From contig JAMOTW010000033.1 in assembly GCA_027062125.1 (NCBI GenBank), positions 28,095-52,094 of the forward strand: 24,000 nt of DNA, read 5' to 3'. Under the pieces are notes generated by a model. The model made no database searches. It was not told the origin of the DNA and worked only from the letters and a program-made list of their open reading frames with translations. Source of the DNA: Thermococcus sp. GTDB lineage: Archaea; Methanobacteriota_B; Thermococci; Thermococcales; Thermococcaceae. The position numbers were made by a program, and so were the translations under genes. How positions within the stretch are numbered: position 1 is the stretch's first letter; each line of letters begins with the position of its first letter. Below are positions 1 through 20,031 of this stretch, one piece after another.

Positions 1-2547
1 GAGGACGACGCTGAAAACACTAGAACATTTGAGTACAAGACGCCCTATATTAGACAATACGAGAACTTCGGGAGGCAATTATATGAGAAAGGAATAATCG
101 TTGGGACGCCGTATTACGTATGGTACAGAACCGATTTAAGTAATTGGCACGACTATGGACATAAATACACACCTCTGATGGGAACATATAAGTCAAACGA
201 CCCTATTGTAATTTCAAAACATATTGACTGGGCTACTGGGTATGGAATTAATCTTTTTTTAGTTTCTTGGAGTGGTTATGAGGAGGGTGATTTGAAATTT
301 TTCGATGAGAATCTTCAGTTAATGTTCAATATCAGTATCTCACAAGATATTTACATTGCAATTCTGTATGAATCAGTTGGTAGGTTAATTAGCAGACCCC
401 CGCCGGTTTACATATCTTTAGACGATGAACGTAATGTCGAGATTTTAACTAGCGATTTAAGATATCTTGCCAAGATGTATTTTTCTAAACAAAACTATTT
501 GCGAATAGAAGGTAAACCCATTGTCTATCTTTATGAGTCTAAAGGATATACCGGAAACCTTGAAAATGTAATTAGAAGGGTAAGAGAGACTATCATCAAT
601 GAATGTGGAATGGATATCTTCTTGATTTCTGATCATGCCCATCCTTTAGCAGATACGGATGACCCTGTATGGATTGATAGATTAAAACAATTTGATGGTG
701 TAACTGTCTGGTTGGGTGGGTATTTACCCGATGGAAAATATGTTGGAGGTAGCTATACTAAACAGTTAAAAATCAATTATTCTAAATGGTACAACCTAAC
801 GAGAAAACTTGGAATTCTCTTGATACCGTTTGGAACGCCAGAATTTGACAATCGGCTATCATGGGGATCCCCAAATTCAATACCTATACTTCGCGATAAA
901 AATAGTTCAAAGCAAAATTTACAGACGCTTTTGGAATATTCGAGTGAATTGCCAGATAGGCACAAAATGATCTTTTGGGGTACATTTAATGACTTCTTTG
1001 AAAGTACAACCTTAGAGCCCGCACAACAATACGAATTTTCTTCATTGGATGGACTTAGGGAAGTTCTTGAGGAGTATTTGGAGAATCTTACTTCGCCTAA
1101 ACCTCAAGTTCTGGGTTTTAACTGGACGCCTACCAAGATTGTTTGGGATAAGGTTTATGATTTGAAGGTTAGTTTCAAACTCTCTTACCCGCCTGATGAG
1201 ATTTCCAGCGTGAAGTTGATCTTCAAACCGGAGAATTACTCGTACTTTATAACCGAATACGGGATGAGACGAGAGGATTATTACAAAGTCTTCCCAAATG
1301 ATTCGAGGGTTTACGAGTTAAAGCCGGTTGATGGAACATTCGACGAGAATGAAGAGGAGTTCAAAGTCGAAGTGAAGAACATCACCGGGGGCGCCGAGTA
1401 CTGGATAATCATTCAAGTTCAAACAAAAAACGGGAGGACAGTAGAGTACAAGAGGAAAACACCATACATCAGACAGTACGAAAACTTTGGCAGGCAATTA
1501 TACGAGAAGGGGATAATCGTCGGAGCAAGTTACATGACATGGTTTGTTAAAGATAACTGGGGATGGCCAAATGATTATGACTTCAAGGGGGCTCCATTGA
1601 TTGGCGGTTACGACATAAATGATAAGCTGGTTCTGTTCAAGCAAATGGACTGGAGTACGGGTTTTGGCATAAACGTATGGTTTTTAGATTGGTCCAGAAA
1701 GAGTGATAATTTTCACACAGACTCCAACATCCGAAAAATATTTCAAATTTCCCATGAGTTTAGTGGTTCGCCAAAGCTCGCCATATTGTGGGATCCAACT
1801 TTTGAAAATATGAAAAAGACAAAGTGTGGCATATGGACTTGTTATGATGTAAACGATAACTCCACGAGAGAATATATTATAGTCACCTTTATGTATCTAG
1901 GCCATACATTTATGGGGGATAGCAACTACTTCAGATTAAACGGCGATCCTGTCATTCACATCTACTCTTCAGCTTCTCTTCGCGGGGATATTGAGAGTCT
2001 ATTCCGGGAAATTAAACGCAAAATGACATCTAAATACGGTTTCAAGCCATCTATTATAGGCCACGAGATAGCATGGATATTTCAATACCCTCCAGATTGG
2101 TTCTCAGTTACTGGAAATGACGCTAAGAGACTTCATGCTTTTGATGGATTCAGTGATTGGGCTGGATCATGCGGAGATAGGAGCCATGAAGAGTACATCA
2201 AGAACTATGAAGAGAATGTGAAAAAATTGTATTCTGAATGGAGTAGTTTTCTAGAAAAAGAGGATGTACTTTTTGTCCCTAGCGTCGTTCCAGGATTCGA
2301 TGAAATATGGATCTATGCAACTACTGACTGGCCACCTATCCCAAGATCACCAGAACTGTTTGAAGAAAGACTGAGAATATCCTTGAATAGCATAAGAAAT
2401 CAAAAGTTTAAAATGATTAGAATTGACACTTGGAATGAGTGGGGTGAATGGACTCAAATAGAACCTACCCATGAGGAAGGTTTCGCTTACCTTAAGGTTC
2501 TCAAGCAAGGTCTAAAGGAGTACATGGAAAAACAAGAAAAAGACTGA
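1..2547 (+). CDS. 5'-truncated (window edge) multi-module glycoside-hydrolase-like protein: two GH99 (endo-alpha-mannosidase)/WbsX-like domains separated by a ~110-aa beta-sandwich-like spacer
   Basis: Frame 1 is open from nt 1, with no stop before the track ATG at 178. The upstream residues (..TPYIRQYENFGRQLYEKGIIVGTPYYVWY..) continue the domain, so the true start lies outside the window. PLMGTYKSNDPIVISKHIDWATGYGINLFLVSWSG and PLIGGYDINDKLVLFKQMDWSTGFGINVWFLDWS fit the N-terminal pattern I recall for GH99/WbsX-like proteins. The C-terminal TWNEWGEWTQIEP resembles the GH99 NEWHEGTQIE block. Family assignment is from memory, not from a search. Confidence 0.75.
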   Translation, partial: EDDAENTRTFEYKTPYIRQYENFGRQLYEKGIIVGTPYYVWYRTDLSNWHDYGHKYTPLMGTYKSNDPIVISKHIDWATGYGINLFLVSWSGYEEGDLKFFDENLQLMFNISISQDIYIAILYESVGRLISRPPPVYISLDDERNVEILTSDLRYLAKMYFSKQNYLRIEGKPIVYLYESKGYTGNLENVIRRVRETIINECGMDIFLISDHAHPLADTDDPVWIDRLKQFDGVTVWLGGYLPDGKYVGGSYTKQLKINYSKWYNLTRKLGILLIPFGTPEFDNRLSWGSPNSIPILRDKNSSKQNLQTLLEYSSELPDRHKMIFWGTFNDFFESTTLEPAQQYEFSSLDGLREVLEEYLENLTSPKPQVLGFNWTPTKIVWDKVYDLKVSFKLSYPPDEISSVKLIFKPENYSYFITEYGMRREDYYKVFPNDSRVYELKPVDGTFDENEEEFKVEVKNITGGAEYWIIIQVQTKNGRTVEYKRKTPYIRQYENFGRQLYEKGIIVGASYMTWFVKDNWGWPNDYDFKGAPLIGGYDINDKLVLFKQMDWSTGFGINVWFLDWSRKSDNFHTDSNIRKIFQISHEFSGSPKLAILWDPTFENMKKTKCGIWTCYDVNDNSTREYIIVTFMYLGHTFMGDSNYFRLNGDPVIHIYSSASLRGDIESLFREIKRKMTSKYGFKPSIIGHEIAWIFQYPPDWFSVTGNDAKRLHAFDGFSDWAGSCGDRSHEEYIKNYEENVKKLYSEWSSFLEKEDVLFVPSVVPGFDEIWIYATTDWPPIPRSPELFEERLRISLNSIRNQKFKMIRIDTWNEWGEWTQIEPTHEEGFAYLKVLKQGLKEYMEKQEKD
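40..105 (+). repeat. Copy 1 of the intragenic module-junction repeat (encodes TPYIRQYENFGRQLYEKGIIVG)
   Basis: The same 22 aa are encoded at 1459-1524. A codon-by-codon comparison shows 13 synonymous and 0 non-synonymous differences. Confidence 0.9.
1459..1524 (+). repeat. Copy 2 of the intragenic module-junction repeat (encodes TPYIRQYENFGRQLYEKGIIVG)
   Basis: Direct repeat of 40-105 with a period of about 1.42 kb. The flanking catalytic-type domains are far more diverged. Confidence 0.9.
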
Positions 2548-2554
2548 CGCCCCT

Positions 2555-2842
2555 TTATTCCTGGGTAAGAGTCCTCACGAGTTCATCAAGGGCCTTGTAA
2601 ACGTCGCTTGTGCCATAGAGCTTCTCCATAGTTTTCATGATCCGATAGCGGGCATCGACGTTGTATGGACTGATCTCCTTCTGAACCCCTTCAGAACCCA
2701 CCAGGACTTCGCTCACGAGACCGAGCCACTCACTGTACACGGACATAAGCTCCTCGAGGAGCATTATCTTCGAGGCCAACCCCATCTCCTTAAGCGCCTC
2801 TCCAATGGGCTTATCCCCCGTCCTCTCAAGGACAATTGGCAT
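2555..2842 (-). CDS. Small hypothetical protein (95 aa, predicted helical)
   Basis: The track ORF 2555..3133 overlaps rplP1 in another frame, so I trimmed it to the ATG at 2842 (a GTG at 2851 is also possible). Codon usage matches the GC-rich host genes. A TATA-like CTTAAATA lies about 25-30 nt upstream (plus 2873-2884), which suggests a leaderless mRNA. I recognise no family. Confidence 0.55.
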   Translation of the reverse strand: MPIVLERTGDKPIGEALKEMGLASKIMLLEELMSVYSEWLGLVSEVLVGSEGVQKEISPYNVDARYRIMKTMEKLYGTSDVYKALDELVRTLTQE

Positions 2843-2902
2843 GAAAACCACCAGAGAATCTACGAAACCATCGTATTTAAGGGCCTCGAAGAAGTTCGAA
2901 AT

Positions 2903-2922
2903 GAAAACCGAAGTAAAAGAGA
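2903..2922 (-). terminator. Oligo-T terminator candidate after rplP1
   Basis: The minus strand reads CCTTCTCTTTTACTTCGGTTTTCAT immediately after the rplP1 stop. Archaeal RNAP terminates at T-runs. Confidence 0.45.
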
Positions 2923-2936
2923 AGGGAGGAAGGAGT

Positions 2937-15920: not shown

Positions 15921-15980
15921 GCTTTCACCCAACCGTTTTAAACTCCCCGCCCTAAATAAGCTTGTGGTGGTAGCGTGGCG

Positions 15981-16580
15981 ATGAGGTTCGTCCTCGACAC
16001 GAGCATCTTTGTCAACCCCGAGATACGGGGGAAGTTCGGAGACAACCCGACCGAGGCGATGAGAACGTTCCTCGGTTACGCCGAGGGGCTCTTCGGCAGG
16101 GTGGAGTTCTACATGCCCCCTGGCATATACCGTGAGGTCATGCACTTCGTCGACGAGGAGGAGCTCCTGCCTGACATCGAGCTCTACATAATCAAGAAGC
16201 CGCCAAACGTCCACGACATCAAGATTCCAGCTTTCGTGGTCTACGAGCTCATCGAAGACATAAGGCGGAGGATAGACAAGGGGCTCCGCGTTGCCGAGAA
16301 GGCCGTTCGCGAGAGCGTCATCGAGACGGACAACGTTGACAGGATAATCCAGAAGCTCAGGAGGAACTACCGGAAGGCACTCCGCGAGGGGATAGTTGAC
16401 AGCAAGGAGGACTTTGAGCTCATACTCCTGGCCAAAGAGCTCGATGCGACCATAGTCTCCGCCGACGTCGGCATACTCACGTGGGCCCAGAAGATGGGCA
16501 TCAAGTGGATAGATGCCGCGAACTTCAGGGAGGTCCTCGAGGGCCTGTCCGAGAGGTTCACCGAAGGGAAAAATTTATAA
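15981..16580 (+). CDS. RNA-free (protein-only) RNase P homologue, HARP / former UPF0278, PIN-like
   Basis: MRFVLDTSIFVNPE..., RRRIDKGLRVAEKA, YRKALREGIVDSKEDFELILLAKELDATIVSADVGILTWAQKMGIKWID match the Aquifex Aq_880-type family as I recall it, at about 199 aa. Confidence 0.72.
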   Translation: MRFVLDTSIFVNPEIRGKFGDNPTEAMRTFLGYAEGLFGRVEFYMPPGIYREVMHFVDEEELLPDIELYIIKKPPNVHDIKIPAFVVYELIEDIRRRIDKGLRVAEKAVRESVIETDNVDRIIQKLRRNYRKALREGIVDSKEDFELILLAKELDATIVSADVGILTWAQKMGIKWIDAANFREVLEGLSERFTEGKNL

Positions 16581-16581
16581 A
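16566..16581 (+). promoter_or_regulatory. BRE/TATA promoter of tRNA-Thr, embedded in the 3' end of the HARP CDS
   Basis: GGGAAAAATTTATAAA ends 25 nt before tRNA position +1 (16607). It contains the HARP stop codon TAA (16578-16580). Confidence 0.7.
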
Positions 16582-16606
16582 GCCTCTCCTGCACCGTATA
16601 ATCGAC

Positions 16607-16683
16607 GCCCCGGTGGCTCAGCCTGGCGGAGCGGCCGCTTGGTAAGCGGCAGGTCGCGGGTTCAAACCCCGCCCGGGGCTCCA
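16607..16683 (+). tRNA. tRNA-Thr (anticodon GGU), CCA encoded, no intron
   Basis: Manual cloverleaf. Acceptor GCCCCGG/CCGGGGC. D arm GCTC..GAGC. Anticodon stem GCCGC/GCGGC with loop TTGGTAA. T arm GCGGG-TTCAAAC-CCCGC. Discriminator T followed by CCA. Confidence 0.93.
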
Positions 16684-16688
16684 TTCTA

Positions 16689-16734
16689 CAAACTTCGCCT
16701 TCGCGAAGTTTGATCAAGGTCCGTGATTCCTTTT
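16689..16734 (+). repeat. Hairpin module M1 (+)
   Basis: CAAACTTCGC-cttc-GCGAAGTTTG (10-bp stem, 16689-16712), then ATCAAGGTCC, then GTGATTCCTTTT. It starts 5 nt after the tRNA-Thr CCA. Confidence 0.85.
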
Positions 16735-16829
16735 GAAAAGCGCGTTCTGGAGTGGATTTCTTTGAGAACCACTTCTTGGGCAGAAAGGAGATTTGCCCCA
16801 AAGAGGCGTATTCTGAGGGGGTTCAAGCG

Positions 16830-16858
16830 TTTTTGGCGCTCCTTTGGAGCGCTAAAAA
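16830..16858 (+). repeat. Central T5/GC-hairpin/A5 element of unit U1
   Basis: TTTTTGGCGCTCC-ttt-GGAGCGCTAAAAA forms a 13-bp stem including one G-T(U) pair. It is followed by GCCGAACC. The counterpart in U2 is at 17488-17537. Confidence 0.8.
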
Positions 16859-16949
16859 GCCGAACCCTTCTCAAACGAACTACAGGAAACGAAATCCATG
16901 TTGACCAAGTGAGAGCAATATCTGAAGAAATCCTCCAAACAAGCCACTT

Positions 16950-16995
16950 AAAAGGAATCACGACCTTTGCCCAGCAACTTTGCGCAGGCAAAGTT
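16950..16995 (-). repeat. Hairpin module M2 (-)
   Basis: The minus strand reads AACTTTGC-ctgc-GCAAAGTT, then GCTGGGCAAAGGTC, then GTGATTCCTTTT. Confidence 0.85.
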
Positions 16996-17039
16996 TTCTG
17001 TACTCTCAAACCCCCGTAGTGGGGCTTCGCCCACGTTAA

Positions 17040-17084
17040 GAAACTTTTCTGGGGAAAAGTTTCATCAAAACTGGCAGCCTTTTA
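17040..17084 (+). repeat. Hairpin module M3 (+), degenerate tail
   Basis: GAAACTTTTC-tggg-GAAAAGTTTC (10 bp), then ATCAAAACTGGCAGCCTTTTA. Compare M6: GATCAAAAGCTGGTGATTCTTTTT. Confidence 0.65.
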
Positions 17085-17149
17085 GGGTTGCTAACCTAGT
17101 TAGAGGTTTACTCTCAACTTGCTCGTTTTAGTTGGGGTTTCTTCTCCCT

Positions 17150-17172
17150 AGCGCCCTTCGGGCGCTGTTTTT
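17150..17172 (+). terminator. GC hairpin with TTCG tetraloop followed by T5 (intrinsic-terminator-like), near the symmetry axis
   Basis: AGCGCCC-ttcg-GGGCGCT then GTTTTT. It is oriented for + strand transcription. Confidence 0.4.
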
Positions 17173-17266
17173 AGACAACCCCTCACCAACAAGCTTTCAT
17201 GAAAATAAACCCCTAAACAAGAATGCCCACTTGACGAGGCATGCAACTACCCACATACTCTCTTAA

Positions 17267-17309
17267 CTACTCAAACTCCTTTGGTCAAGCTTTGCGCAAG
17301 CAAAGCTTG
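17267..17309 (-). repeat. Hairpin module M4 (-), tail partly deleted
   Basis: CAAGCTTTGC-gcaa-GCAAAGCTTG (10 bp, 17286-17309). The minus-strand tail ACCAAAGGAGTTTGAGTAG aligns to the M6 tail ATCAAAAG..TTTGAGTGG if the GTGATTC block has been lost. The orientation call is tentative. Confidence 0.45.
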
Positions 17310-17339
17310 CTGGGGGGCTAACGCCCCCACACCCCCCAG

Positions 17340-17395
17340 AACTTTGCCTGCGTAAAGTTTCTGGACAAAGTTTCGTCAAAGTTCGTGATTCCTTA
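17340..17395 (+). repeat. Hairpin module M5 (+)
   Basis: AACTTTGC-ctgc-GTAAAGTT (one G-U pair), then a spacer with a duplicated CAAAGTT, then GTGATTCCTTA. The hairpin is nearly identical to M2 read on the minus strand. Confidence 0.8.
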
Positions 17396-17487
17396 CTTAG
17401 AATTCGCTAGGCAACGGGGGGTTTTAGTTGAAATCTGCAATTTTGGCCGGATTCATTCCAAAAAAGGTAACCCTTGATAGGTTCGGC

Positions 17488-17537
17488 TTTTTTAGCGCTC
17501 CGGAGGAGCGCGGGTTGAAGTTGAACCCGCTAAAAAA
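17488..17537 (+). repeat. Central T6/GC-hairpin/A6 element of unit U2, with an extra inserted hairpin (three-way-junction-like)
   Basis: TTTTTTA + GCGCTCC-gga-GGAGCGC + CGGGTT-gaagttg-AACCCG + (c) TAAAAAA. It is preceded by GGTTCGGC, the reverse complement of the GCCGAACC that follows the U1 element. Confidence 0.8.
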
Positions 17538-17605
17538 CGCCCTTTCGACATGAATCCAACGTACAATCTAACCAATAAAACAAACCCCACCAAAACTGAC
17601 CACTC

Positions 17606-17653
17606 AAAAAGAATCACCAGCTTTTGATCAAACTTTTGCCCTGCAAAAGTTTG
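17606..17653 (-). repeat. Hairpin module M6 (-)
   Basis: The minus strand reads CAAACTTTTGC-agg-GCAAAAGTTTG (11 bp), then ATCAAAAGCTG, then GTGATTCTTTTT. It starts 5 nt after the tRNA-Pro CCA, mirroring M1. Confidence 0.85.
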
Positions 17654-17658
17654 TTTCC

Positions 17659-17736
17659 TGGTGGGGCCGCCGGGATTCGAACCCGGGTCACGGGCTCCCA
17701 AAGCCCGCAGGATGGACCAGGCTACCCTACGGCCCC
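17659..17736 (-). tRNA. tRNA-Pro (anticodon UGG), CCA encoded, no intron
   Basis: Manual cloverleaf on the minus strand. Acceptor GGGGCCG/CGGCCCC. Anticodon stem CGGGC/GCCCG with loop TTTGGGA (G37). T arm CCGGG-TTCGAAT-CCCGG. Discriminator A followed by CCA. Confidence 0.92.
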
Positions 17737-17764
17737 GCCCGCGGTAGGTGCATCGGGGGGTTCC

Positions 17765-17777
17765 TTATTAAGCTTTT
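17765..17777 (-). promoter_or_regulatory. BRE/TATA promoter of tRNA-Pro
   Basis: The minus strand reads AAAAGCTTAATAA and ends 28 nt upstream of the tRNA 5' end. Confidence 0.6.
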
Positions 17778-17813
17778 CGCTGGAAGCTTTTGGAAAAGCT
17801 TGCTCCGCAGGAT

Positions 17814-17821
17814 TTTTATAA
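17814..17821 (+). promoter_or_regulatory. TATA box candidate for topA
   Basis: TTTTATAA lies 30 nt upstream of the ATG at 17851, so the leader is short or absent. Confidence 0.5.
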
Positions 17822-17850
17822 CCCCCGGACTACCTTTTCAAGGTGTCGCC

Positions 17851-20031
17851 ATGGTCACGCTCATCATCGCCGAGAAGCCGAACGTCGCGAGAAAGATCGC
17901 CTACGCCTTAGCAGAGGGCAAGCCCGTGAGGAAGACGATAGGGAAGGTCTCCTACTATGAGTTCACCCGCGACGGCAAGAAGGTGATAGTCGCCCCCGCG
18001 GTCGGCCACCTGTTCTCCCTCGCCCCGAAGGTTAAAACCTACGGCTATCCCGTCTTCGACATCGAGTGGGTTCCCGTCTACGTCGCCGAGAAGGGGAAGG
18101 GCTACGCCAAGGACTACATCAAGGCGTTAGCCACGCTTGCCAAGCGTGCCGACGAGTTCGTGGTTGCCTGCGACTACGACACGGAGGGCGAGGTGATAGG
18201 TTACACGGCCCTCAAATACGCCTGCGGCGTCGATCCGTCAAAGGCAAAGCGCATGAAGTTCTCCGCACTCACGAAGAAAGACCTCCTCAAGGCCTGGTAC
18301 AACCTCGAGCCGACGATAAACTTCGGGATGGCCGATGCCGGAATAGCACGCCACGTCCTCGACTGGTACTGGGGCGTGAACCTTTCGAGGGCCCTAACCT
18401 CGGCGATAAAGCGTGCGAGCGGCAAATGGATGGTCCTCTCCACCGGCCGCGTCCAGGGGCCGACGCTTAAGTTCCTCGTCGACAGGGAGAGGGAGATAGC
18501 CAATTTCAAGCCCACCCCGTACTGGGTCATAAAGATGCTACTCGAGAAAAACGGGGAGCAGTACACGGCGGTCTACGAAAAGGAGCGCATCCTCGATGAG
18601 AACGAGGCGAAGCGCATCGTCGAGGAGGCTAAGAAGGGCCCGGCCTTCGTCGAGAAGGTCGAGGTCAAGCAGCAGAGGAGGAATCCGCCGGTGCCCTTCG
18701 ACCTCGGAACCCTGCAGAGGGAGGCCTATTCTGCCTTTGGATACAGCCCGAAGAAGACTTTGGAGCTCGCACAGAAGCTGTATGAACGGGGATTAACGAG
18801 CTATCCCCGCACCTCATCCCAAAAGCTCCCCAAGAACCTCAACTTCCGCTCCATACTCCAGAACCTGGCAAAGCTACCCGAGTACAAGCCCTTCGCCCAC
18901 GAGCTTCTTGGTAAGGAGAGGCTCAAGCCCGTCGAGGGCAAGAAGGACGACCCGGCGCACCCGGCAATCTACCCCACCGGGGAGCTTCCAAAGCCCGGCG
19001 AGCTTACCAAGGACGAGGCCAACCTCTACGACCTCATCGTCAGACGCTTCCTAGCCCTCTTCATGGAGCCAGCCGTCAGGGAGATAATGAAGGTCGTAAT
19101 AAACTCCAACTCCCACCGCTTCATCCTGAGCGGCGCGCGAACGGTTAAGGAGGGCTGGCTGAAGGTATACGGCAAGTACGTCAAGTTCGACGAGGTGATC
19201 CTTCCAGCCTTCAGGGAGGGCGAGCCGGTCAAGGTCATTCAGATAAAGCGCGAGAAGAAGAAGACGAAGCCCCCGGCAAGGTACTCTCCAGCGGCGGTTA
19301 TTAAAAAGATGGAGGACCTCGGCATAGGAACCAAAGCCACCCGCGCCCAGATTCTGGAGACCCTCTACAGCAGGGGCTACATCGAGGGCAAGAGAAAGAT
19401 AAAGGTCACGCCCCTTGGAATGCGCGTCGTTGAGGCTTTGGAGAAGAACGTGCCCGACATAGTCAGCGTCGAGCTCACGAGGGCCTTCGAGGAGAAGATG
19501 GAGGAGATAATGGCCGGGAAGGCTGAGAAGGAGCAGGTCATCGAGGAGAGCAAGAACCAGCTGATCAAAATACTCAAGGTCTTCAAGGAGAAAGAGATGG
19601 ACATCGGCAGGATACTCCTCGAGACGACCGGCACGGGGGTAACCAAGTCAAAGGCCCCCGGAGGGAAAGCGGGCGCGGTTAAAGAGCTCAGCGAGGAGGA
19701 AGAGCGCGAGGTTCAGAGGGCCGTTGATGGGAAGGCCGGTAATGAAAAGGCCCGGAAGCCCGAGAGGAAAGCCCTCATCATAGGCAAGTGCCCCAAGTGC
19801 GGCGGCGACCTGGTCGTCCGCTACAACAGGAAAACCGGTAAGAGGTTCGTCGGCTGCTCCAACTGGCCGAAGTGCAACGTAACCTACCCCCTCCTCCAGC
19901 GCGGCGAGATAATCCCGACGGACAAAACCTGCTGTGGCGGTGCACCCGTCGTTAAAATCCGCGAGAAGGGCCGCGAGTACGAGATATGCGTCGACATGAA
20001 CTGCAGGGACTGGAAGAAGGGAAAGAAGTGA
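17851..20031 (+). CDS. topA: DNA topoisomerase, type IA (archaeal Topo I/III) with C-terminal zinc ribbons
   Basis: The Toprim start [17 protein letters not shown], the active-site region [13 protein letters not shown], and the C-terminal [16 protein letters not shown] zinc ribbon. The track start at 17800 was rejected in favour of the ATG after AGGTG. Confidence 0.93.

Follow-up and report, generated by a model that had tools for sequence, protein, structure and literature searches.

The island between the tRNA-Thr and tRNA-Pro genes

The 24,000-nucleotide (nt) stretch of Thermococcus sp. DNA analyzed here as a whole (contig JAMOTW010000033.1; the window) carries a tRNA-Thr(GGU) and a tRNA-Pro(UGG) gene separated by a 975-bp gap, 16684-17658, that holds no convincing gene and is called the island below. 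Its GC content is ~46-48%, compared to 56% for the genome. A sequence-only reading had noticed six module hairpins (M1 to M6) in this gap and had proposed that compensatory changes keep their stems paired and that two G-T pairs mark the plus strand as the one that folds. All six hairpins were found again at the same positions, as were the two G-T pairs, 17346 G/17353 T in M5 and 16835 G/16853 T in the central hairpin of the repeat unit U1. The two tRNA genes and the hairpins between them are the following.

16607-16683, plus strand: tRNA-Thr(GGU), detected by ARAGORN and Rfam; the island begins 5 nt past its CCA end.
16689-16712, plus strand: M1, CAAACTTCGC cttc GCGAAGTTTG, 10 bp, CGC subtype with CTTC loop, 52 bits with model R1.
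16975-16996, minus strand: M2, AACTTTGC gcag GCAAAGTT, TGC subtype with 8 perfect bp, right end of U1.
17040-17063: M3, 10 bp, TTC subtype with TGGG loop.
17286-17309: M4, 10 bp, AAGCTT variant (AAGCTTTGC subtype).
17338-17362: M5, AACTTTGC ctgc GTAAAGTT, with the G·T pair 17346 G/17353 T, far end of unit U2.
17629-17653: M6, 11 bp with a 3-nt loop, TTGC subtype, tRNA-proximal end of U2.
17659-17736, minus strand: tRNA-Pro(UGG), detected by ARAGORN and Rfam; M6 begins 5 nt past its CCA end, on the tRNA's own strand.

Perfect hairpins of at least 10 bp (loop 3-5) occur four times in the 975-bp island and not once in the rest of the window (23 kb). In simulations of the island with a first-order Markov model, a mean of 0.027 such hairpins per island was obtained. 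The six-hairpin observation is real and far from chance. The outer stem, described earlier as constant (AAACTT/AAGTTT), has this form in M1, M3, and M6, but is AACTT/AAGTT in M2 and M5 and AAGCTT in M4. Some of the loop letters quoted with it had been taken from the minus strand; the plus strand reads GCAG in M2 and CCT in M6, and read from the outside of the unit to the inside the M2 loop is CTGC. M1 is both the left end of U1 and the trailer of tRNA-Thr.

Architecture of the repeat units

The module hairpins form the terminal modules of non-coding foldback repeat units ~300 bp long. According to the repeat analysis, M1 and M2 bound U1, M5 and M6 bound its inverted copy U2, and M3 and M4 bound a third unit of a different type.

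16689-16996, plus strand: U1, ~308-bp type-A unit with linker TGATCAAGG and cores GTGATTCC/GGAATCAC; inverted repeats I5.
16830-16858: central hairpin of U1, TTTTTGGCGCTCC ttt GGAGCGCTAAAAA, with the G·T pair 16835/16853.
17000-17036: GC-rich module GTACTCTCAAACCCCCGTAGTGGGGCTTCGCCCACG, recurring in other islands of the window's genome (self-matches) and of relatives.
17040-17309, plus strand: third unit, ~270 bp, from M3 to M4; also present at the related locus L036.
17150-17166: central hairpin of the third unit, AGCGCCC ttcg GGCGCT.
17310-17339: GC hairpin CTGGGGGGCTAACGCCCCCACACCCCCCAG, a recurring module.
17338-17653, minus strand: U2, second type-A unit, inverted relative to U1; inverted repeats I1, I2, and I6 and direct repeat D3; folds.
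17494-17510: central hairpin of U2, GCGCTCC gga GGAGCGC.

A type-A unit runs from a hairpin through a TGAYCA-like linker, the core GTGATTCC, a central GCGCTCC-nnn-GGAGCGC hairpin, the core GGAATCAC, and a second linker to the opposite hairpin. Each unit end consists of a hairpin of 10-11 bp, whose A/T-rich outer stem (AARCTT/AAGYTT) encloses two to four inner G/C-rich pairs and a loop of fixed orientation, followed by the TGAYCA-like linker (variants TGATGA, TGATCA, TGGTCA, and TGGTGA) and an invariant inverted-repeat core (GTGATTCC or GTAGCTC), the cores being paired as GTGATTCC/GGAATCAC or GTAGCTC/GAGCTAC. The hairpin-to-hairpin length was 293-310 bp in 22 of the 23 complete type-A units and 328 bp in the remaining one. 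U1 aligned with 33 other type-A units, collected from several genomes, which span 227-239 bp core to core. The unit ends are conserved and the interiors divergent save for a few nested inverted blocks, and the same end modules are common to different unit types. Of the U1 central hairpin, the family as a whole retains just the GCGCTCC/GGAGCGC core.

The folds of the units are far better than those of shuffled sequences (z = -9.0 and -7.0 for the two strands of U1). A continuous covarying RNA rod of ~300 nt was rejected: on 16 type-A units, RNAalifold recovered no more than the conserved inverted blocks, and its covariation term was close to nil (-0.88). A C/D-box reading of the TGATGA linker was discarded by inspection, since this is just one linker variant of several and no D box follows it. 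The reading of GAGTGGATTTC as a repeat like the origin recognition box (ORB) was also set aside; only a 6-nt core is common with what we take to be the Pyrococcus ORB.

Complementarity of the hairpin stems across the family

Hairpin sites were collected by anchoring on the outer arms only (AA[AG]CTT ... AAG[CT]TT) in 3.49 Mb of sequence, namely, the window's genome, which is an incomplete 1.49-Mb Thermococcus metagenome-assembled genome (MAG), its closest closed relative (G008; 1,785,673 bp, taken whole), and ~60 loci from other species. The search yielded 182 anchored sites compared to 4.2 expected by chance. The inner stem was fully Watson-Crick in 138 of the 182, against 87.6 ± 4.0 (maximum 101) after shuffling of the 3' arms. 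All multi-copy stem types were complementary (TGC/GCA, TT/AA, CGC/GCG, TTGC/GCAA, TTC/GAA, CAC/GTG, and TCGC/GCGA), and the non-complementary types were almost all singletons. In 54 distinct tetraloop hairpins, counted like all covariation figures here as sequences and not as independent events (the copies are related), 98.1% of cells paired, compared to 88.4% after shuffling and at most 47% with the partners slid. Four of the ten stem pairs changed on both sides, and the covariation score was matched by 0 of 500 shuffles. The closing pair, which lies outside the anchor, read C-G in 77 cases and G-C in 58; 12 cases had a mismatch.

The inner stem and the closing pair may vary in sequence but must stay complementary. 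Complementarity is kept despite sequence change, and therefore whatever acts on the unit ends reads a folded single strand and not the sequence of a duplex. The proposal of stems kept paired by compensatory change held for the family as a whole but not as local compensation in the window, where the six variants are not one hairpin compensating in place but distinct, widely shared subtypes (CGC, TGC, TTGC, TTC, and AAGCTT) of different unit ends.

A second type of trailer hairpin, CAGCCCTTGC-loop-GCAAGCGCTG followed by GCGGAAG, was present behind at least nine tRNAs in G008 (e.g., locus L097, G008:847155-847190) and in the window's own genome at C213:3057. All 8 copies of this related hairpin's subtype, and 5 copies of a close variant, carry a C·C mismatch that is maintained across species. 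With the mismatch in every copy the hairpin is not a simple palindrome, and it follows that palindrome repair does not by itself lead to perfect pairing.

A four-way-junction variant of the end hairpin, cloverleaf-like with an outer stem CAAACT/AGTTTG around three hairpins, was seen in the window's genome (C136:3030-3100), at four further loci (L027, L046, L147, and L157), and in the trailers of tRNA-Leu(tag) and tRNA-Val(cac) of G008. Its GGGAC-GAYA-GTCCC arm is conserved, and its long arm covaries (GTCGGGC/GCCCGAC, GTCGAGC/GCTCGAC, and GTTGAAGC/GCTTCAAC).

Strand polarity and loops

The linker orients each hairpin from the outside to the inside, which for the tRNA-adjacent copies is the tRNA sense. 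The ratio of G·T to A·C mismatches was 10:9 in 147 oriented hairpins, 6:6 in 64 tRNA-adjacent hairpins in the tRNA sense, and 10:5 in a model-based census of G008, none of which was significant, and the signal was equal on both strands. These counts do not bear out a folded plus strand or a defined polarity. The U1 G-T pair sits in a T5/A5 stem extension absent from the other copies, and both pairs appear to be ordinary transition mismatches. The hairpin mismatches comprised 19 transitions and 12 transversions with no strand bias. The methodological lesson is that the covariation is real at the family level and that two G-T pairs in six copies are uninformative on which strand folds.

The loops had been described as all different. 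They are in fact typical of the subtype and tied to orientation, the CGC stem carrying a CTKC loop (29:1), the AAGCTTTT stem a GGA loop (18:0), and the TTC stem a TGGN loop. The loop diversity in the window reflects six end subtypes in two orientations. Rare loop flips were found between near-identical orthologues (TCT at L028 versus AGA at L031; GAAG versus CTTC).

Association with tRNA genes and genomic distribution

The window's genome has over 20 loci with the repeat modules, and 40 end modules were counted in G008. In the window's genome, where 30 tRNAs were detected, 13 have a family hairpin 5-9 nt past their 3' end. In G008, ~25 of ~46 tRNAs have a trailer hairpin, either of the family type or of the related CAGCCCTTGC...GCAAGCGCTG type, 3-10 nt past the CCA, and 25 of the 29 family hairpins found by pattern are located 3' of a tRNA at a distance of no more than ~1 kb. 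One three-unit island of G008 (727450-728450; L091:7450-8450) is flanked by protein genes, and no tRNA or Rfam RNA is found close by; tRNA adjacency is therefore a strong preference and not a rule. A sequence of the window's genome, C99:2200-2700, was grouped with this island in the same family.

A covariance model built on the 32-nt end module gave matches in 81 of the 97 Thermococcaceae genomes, at most ~40 copies in any one and ~1,500 matches in all. By genus, the module was present in 58/61, 3/3, 10/14, 8/8, and 1/1 genomes, and in none of the 9 closed or nearly closed genomes of one further Thermococcaceae genus. BLAST of 16 genomes from other families of the class gave no match to the repeat. 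The 32-nt module scores ~54 bits in four or more genera and is therefore under active constraint or spreading between lineages. An exact-pattern scan of public genomes matched only two Thermococcus MAG contigs, and literature searches found no published description of this repeat family.

Turnover and rearrangement at the locus

Orthologous tRNA-Thr loci were compared in 29 relatives together with the window's own locus (L023-L052). The gap between tRNA-Thr and tRNA-Pro(UGG) ranges from 26 to 975 nt among the relatives keeping that neighbour and is 9 nt where tRNA-Pro(CGG) follows instead. In four species, tRNA-Pro has the orientation of tRNA-Thr and lies 26-27 nt past it, and the intervening sequence contains no repeat; in most other species, the two genes are convergent with an island between. 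The unit content varies among species, with other unit types and deletion derivatives, and in several species the locus is free of repeats. A given tRNA may be followed by the hairpin in one species and not in another, and at L039 versus L044, the hairpin subtype has been swapped ahead of a nearly identical unit body.

Between species, the tRNA-Pro cassette is found in either orientation, whereas the HARP-like and topoisomerase genes on its two sides do not change theirs (window 16607-17850). This arrangement implies a local inversion of the cassette, bounded by the repeats. The contig of the window is collinear with G008 over 48 kb save at its two islands. Units form arrays of two to four, so accretion happens beside existing copies.

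Comparison with known elements

The Rfam gathering search matched only the two tRNAs, and an E-value search of 16500-17900 gave chance-level matches only; a second island had no Rfam match either. The hairpins are directly followed by TTTGATCAA or TTTCATCAA, with the nearest T4 ~27 nt beyond. An intrinsic terminator (hairpin plus T-run) and an archaeal oligo-T terminator were both rejected, as only TTT and no run of five or more T follows the hairpin.

The arms AAACTTT and AAAGCTT (window 16698-16730) are identical to strings at the junction of the transcription factor B recognition element (BRE) and the TATA box in Thermococcus tRNA promoters (GAAAACTTTATAAA and GCAAAGCTTATAAA), and palindromes of the same sequence family (AAGCTTTT/AAAAGCTT) overlap the tRNA-Pro promoter.

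17763-17801: promoter of tRNA-Pro, minus-strand sequence GCGAAAAGCTTAATAAGG, 15.0 bits against the tRNA-promoter matrix.

Unit ends of promoter grade were rejected, as the hairpin plus linker scored -9.5 to +1.8 bits and the best match in the island 13.0 bits, compared to 15-26 bits for true sites. This best promoter-like match, CAGAAAAGTTTCTTAACG at 17034-17051 on the minus strand, is made of the M3 arm and points leftwards.

Like MITEs (miniature inverted-repeat transposable elements), the units are small and non-coding, with terminal inverted repeats and many dispersed copies, and they share with the Neisseria Correia and Sulfolobus SM-type elements a size below 600 bp, a foldback structure, a multi-copy intergenic occurrence, and presence or absence between relatives. 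In contrast to MITEs, they have neither a target-site duplication nor a parent insertion sequence (IS) with the same ends, their carriers have few or no transposases, their ends are covarying hairpins, and they insert in association with tRNA ends and other copies. A classical MITE was rejected for the lack of a target-site duplication and of a copy of autonomous size in G008.

The repetitive extragenic palindromes (REP) and bacterial interspersed mosaic elements (BIME) of enterobacteria and pseudomonads, mobilized by REP-associated tyrosine transposases (RAYT) of the Y1/HUH type, resemble the Thermococcus repeats in being short extragenic imperfect palindromes of 20-40 nt with covarying stems, clustered in mosaic arrays of alternating orientation, recognized in the folded single-stranded form, numbering tens of copies or more, and acting as rearrangement hot spots. 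The Thermococcus repeats differ in having no conserved GTAG-type 5' tetranucleotide and no RAYT/Y1 gene in the carrier genomes tested, in hairpins that delimit units of ~300 bp in which inverted-repeat cores and central hairpins are separate elements, in a strict preference for the 3' flank of tRNA genes, and in their archaeal host. Membership in REP/RAYT was rejected, as the Y1/HUH domain PF01797 is absent from most carrier genomes; it is present in 28 of the 97 family genomes, unrelated to the repeat load.

The ends of IS200/IS605 elements and of palindrome-associated transposable elements (PATEs) also carry subterminal hairpins read as single-stranded DNA (ssDNA), make no target-site duplication, and insert beside a short target motif. 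Their ends are, however, asymmetric without terminal inverted repeats and need the Y1 transposase TnpA, whereas the Thermococcus ends are mirror-symmetric. For this reason, and with PF01797 absent from most carriers, an IS200/IS605-derived PATE was rejected. Integron attC sites and folded single-strand recombination sites of the CTX-phi type likewise have conserved complementary outer boxes and a variable complementary inner stem, with structure read over sequence. In attC, extrahelical bases choose the strand and an integron integrase acts as partner, whereas neither bases of this kind nor an integrase or cassettes were seen here. The likeness is functional only, and membership is not proposed.

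A DNA-level end signal as the favoured explanation

With moderate confidence, the hairpins are explained as the end structures of ~300-bp foldback units that serve as a DNA-level end signal for copying or recombination. Such units would accumulate, be swapped, and be lost directly 3' of tRNA genes in Thermococcaceae. The hairpin may act as the end signal on folded ssDNA while a unit is copied, inserted, or recombined beside tRNA ends or existing units, with the ends possibly read much as those of REP, attC, or IS200-type elements are. The acting enzyme would be host-encoded or still to be recognized, and a reader of the stems would tolerate any complementary inner sequence. The six variants in the window, six different end subtypes, would have been gathered by accretion and by local inversion of the tRNA-Pro cassette. 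This explanation is favoured because of the mirror-symmetric ends, the sharing of ends by different bodies, the arrays, the fast turnover, and the absence of a strand bias. The lack of a G·T excess on either strand is as expected if neither strand is privileged, and the mirror symmetry seen in the unit ends extends to the loops.

Several findings weigh against a DNA-level end signal. No consistent direct repeat flanks the 23 complete units. Paired ends in G008, one closed genome, lie 239-267 bp or more than 39 kb apart, and none were 0.6-3 kb apart as in a copy of autonomous size. PF01797 is absent from the window's genome, from G000, G008, G001, G012, and G013, and from most carriers. No enzyme, no insertion event, and no empty site matching a filled one at the exact boundary was seen. 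Extrusion of a hairpin or cruciform from duplex DNA should be disfavoured in hyperthermophiles with reverse gyrase. Finally, perfect hairpins were slightly more frequent among the tRNA-adjacent copies (47/54) than among the internal ones (70/93, P = 0.095), which hints at a role in the tRNA transcript.

This last observation also suits a rather unlikely alternative, in which the hairpin is an RNA element of the tRNA trailer that sets or protects the 3' end, by endonucleolytic release, exonuclease block, termination, or insulation between convergent tRNA genes, and the units are co-opted or duplicated trailers. The position 3-10 nt past the CCA in the tRNA sense, in 13/30 and ~25/46 tRNAs of the two genomes, is consistent with such an element, as are the frequent placement of islands between convergent tRNA genes and the restriction of the hairpin in tandem tRNA pairs to the last gene. 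There is no T-run between the tRNA and the hairpin, so the hairpin should be transcribed, and the tRNA-proximal hairpin is probably transcribed within the tRNA trailer, although this is not taken as the primary constraint. A trailer RNA would not account for the more than half of the end modules that are internal to arrays in either orientation, and its case is weakened by the equal numbers of G·U and A·C in the tRNA sense (6:6), the presence or absence of the hairpin behind the same tRNA depending on the species, the mere TTT in place of an archaeal oligo-T terminator, and the lack of an Rfam family match.

It is doubtful that the units are folded-single-strand recombination sites for host or plasmid recombinases and the real crossover substrates of the tRNA-bounded inversions of Thermococcales. 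Thermococcus inversion breakpoints were placed at oppositely oriented tRNA gene pairs, and the tRNA-Leu and tRNA-Thr genes alone showed no recombination in vitro (Cossu et al. 2017, PMC5495485), a failure that recombination at the repeats, if true, would explain. The flipped tRNA-Pro cassette at the present locus resembles these inversions, but no repeat family appears in that paper and the link to the repeats is ours: unrelated tRNA loci given the same trailing sequence would be supplied with the missing homology. Thermococcales chromosomes are scrambled by inversions at tRNA genes through a homologous sequence unnamed so far, for which the repeat family is a concrete candidate, as it trails more than half of the tRNA genes in G008 and is retained in the majority of Thermococcaceae genera.

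It is improbable that structural selection is absent and that template switching, or gene conversion from arm to arm or copy to copy, keeps the palindromes, with copied founder variants mimicking covariation. About seven complementary stem types cover the 138 paired sites and the non-complementary types are nearly all singletons, the mismatches resemble an unselected spectrum, and the rare loop flips show inversion within the hairpin at the DNA level, all of which suits mechanical maintenance. However, frequent hairpin-mediated events would randomize the loops, the orientation of which is fixed (29:1 and 18:0), the related trailer hairpin keeps its C·C mismatch across species, and the same consensus at ~54 bits in four or more genera is unlike the outcome of drift and conversion. 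Duplex protein-binding palindromes, i.e., BRE/TATA-like decoys, operator sites for a dimer, or possibly weak promoters at the unit ends, are very improbable despite the promoter-like arms and the AAGCTTTT palindromes over a real tRNA-Pro promoter, as the hairpin plus linker scores far below true promoters and several inner half-sites coexist in one genome, each matching its partner arm, a match that a dimer reading sequence does not need.

The repeat family is a rare example of an archaeal REP/MITE-like system without a recognizable transposase, and the missing transposase points either to an unknown structure-specific enzyme or to an unrecognized role in the biology of the tRNA 3' end at 80-90 °C.

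Other features of the window

Upstream of the island, an open reading frame at 15975-16580 encoding a HARP-like protein (a homologue of the protein-only RNase P) has its 3' end inside the tRNA-Thr promoter. Beside the tRNA-Arg(tcg) island, which lies immediately upstream of the window, ~3.4 kb (window 1-2928; C33:27600-31022) has no counterpart in the otherwise collinear G008, and the segment may be an inserted element.

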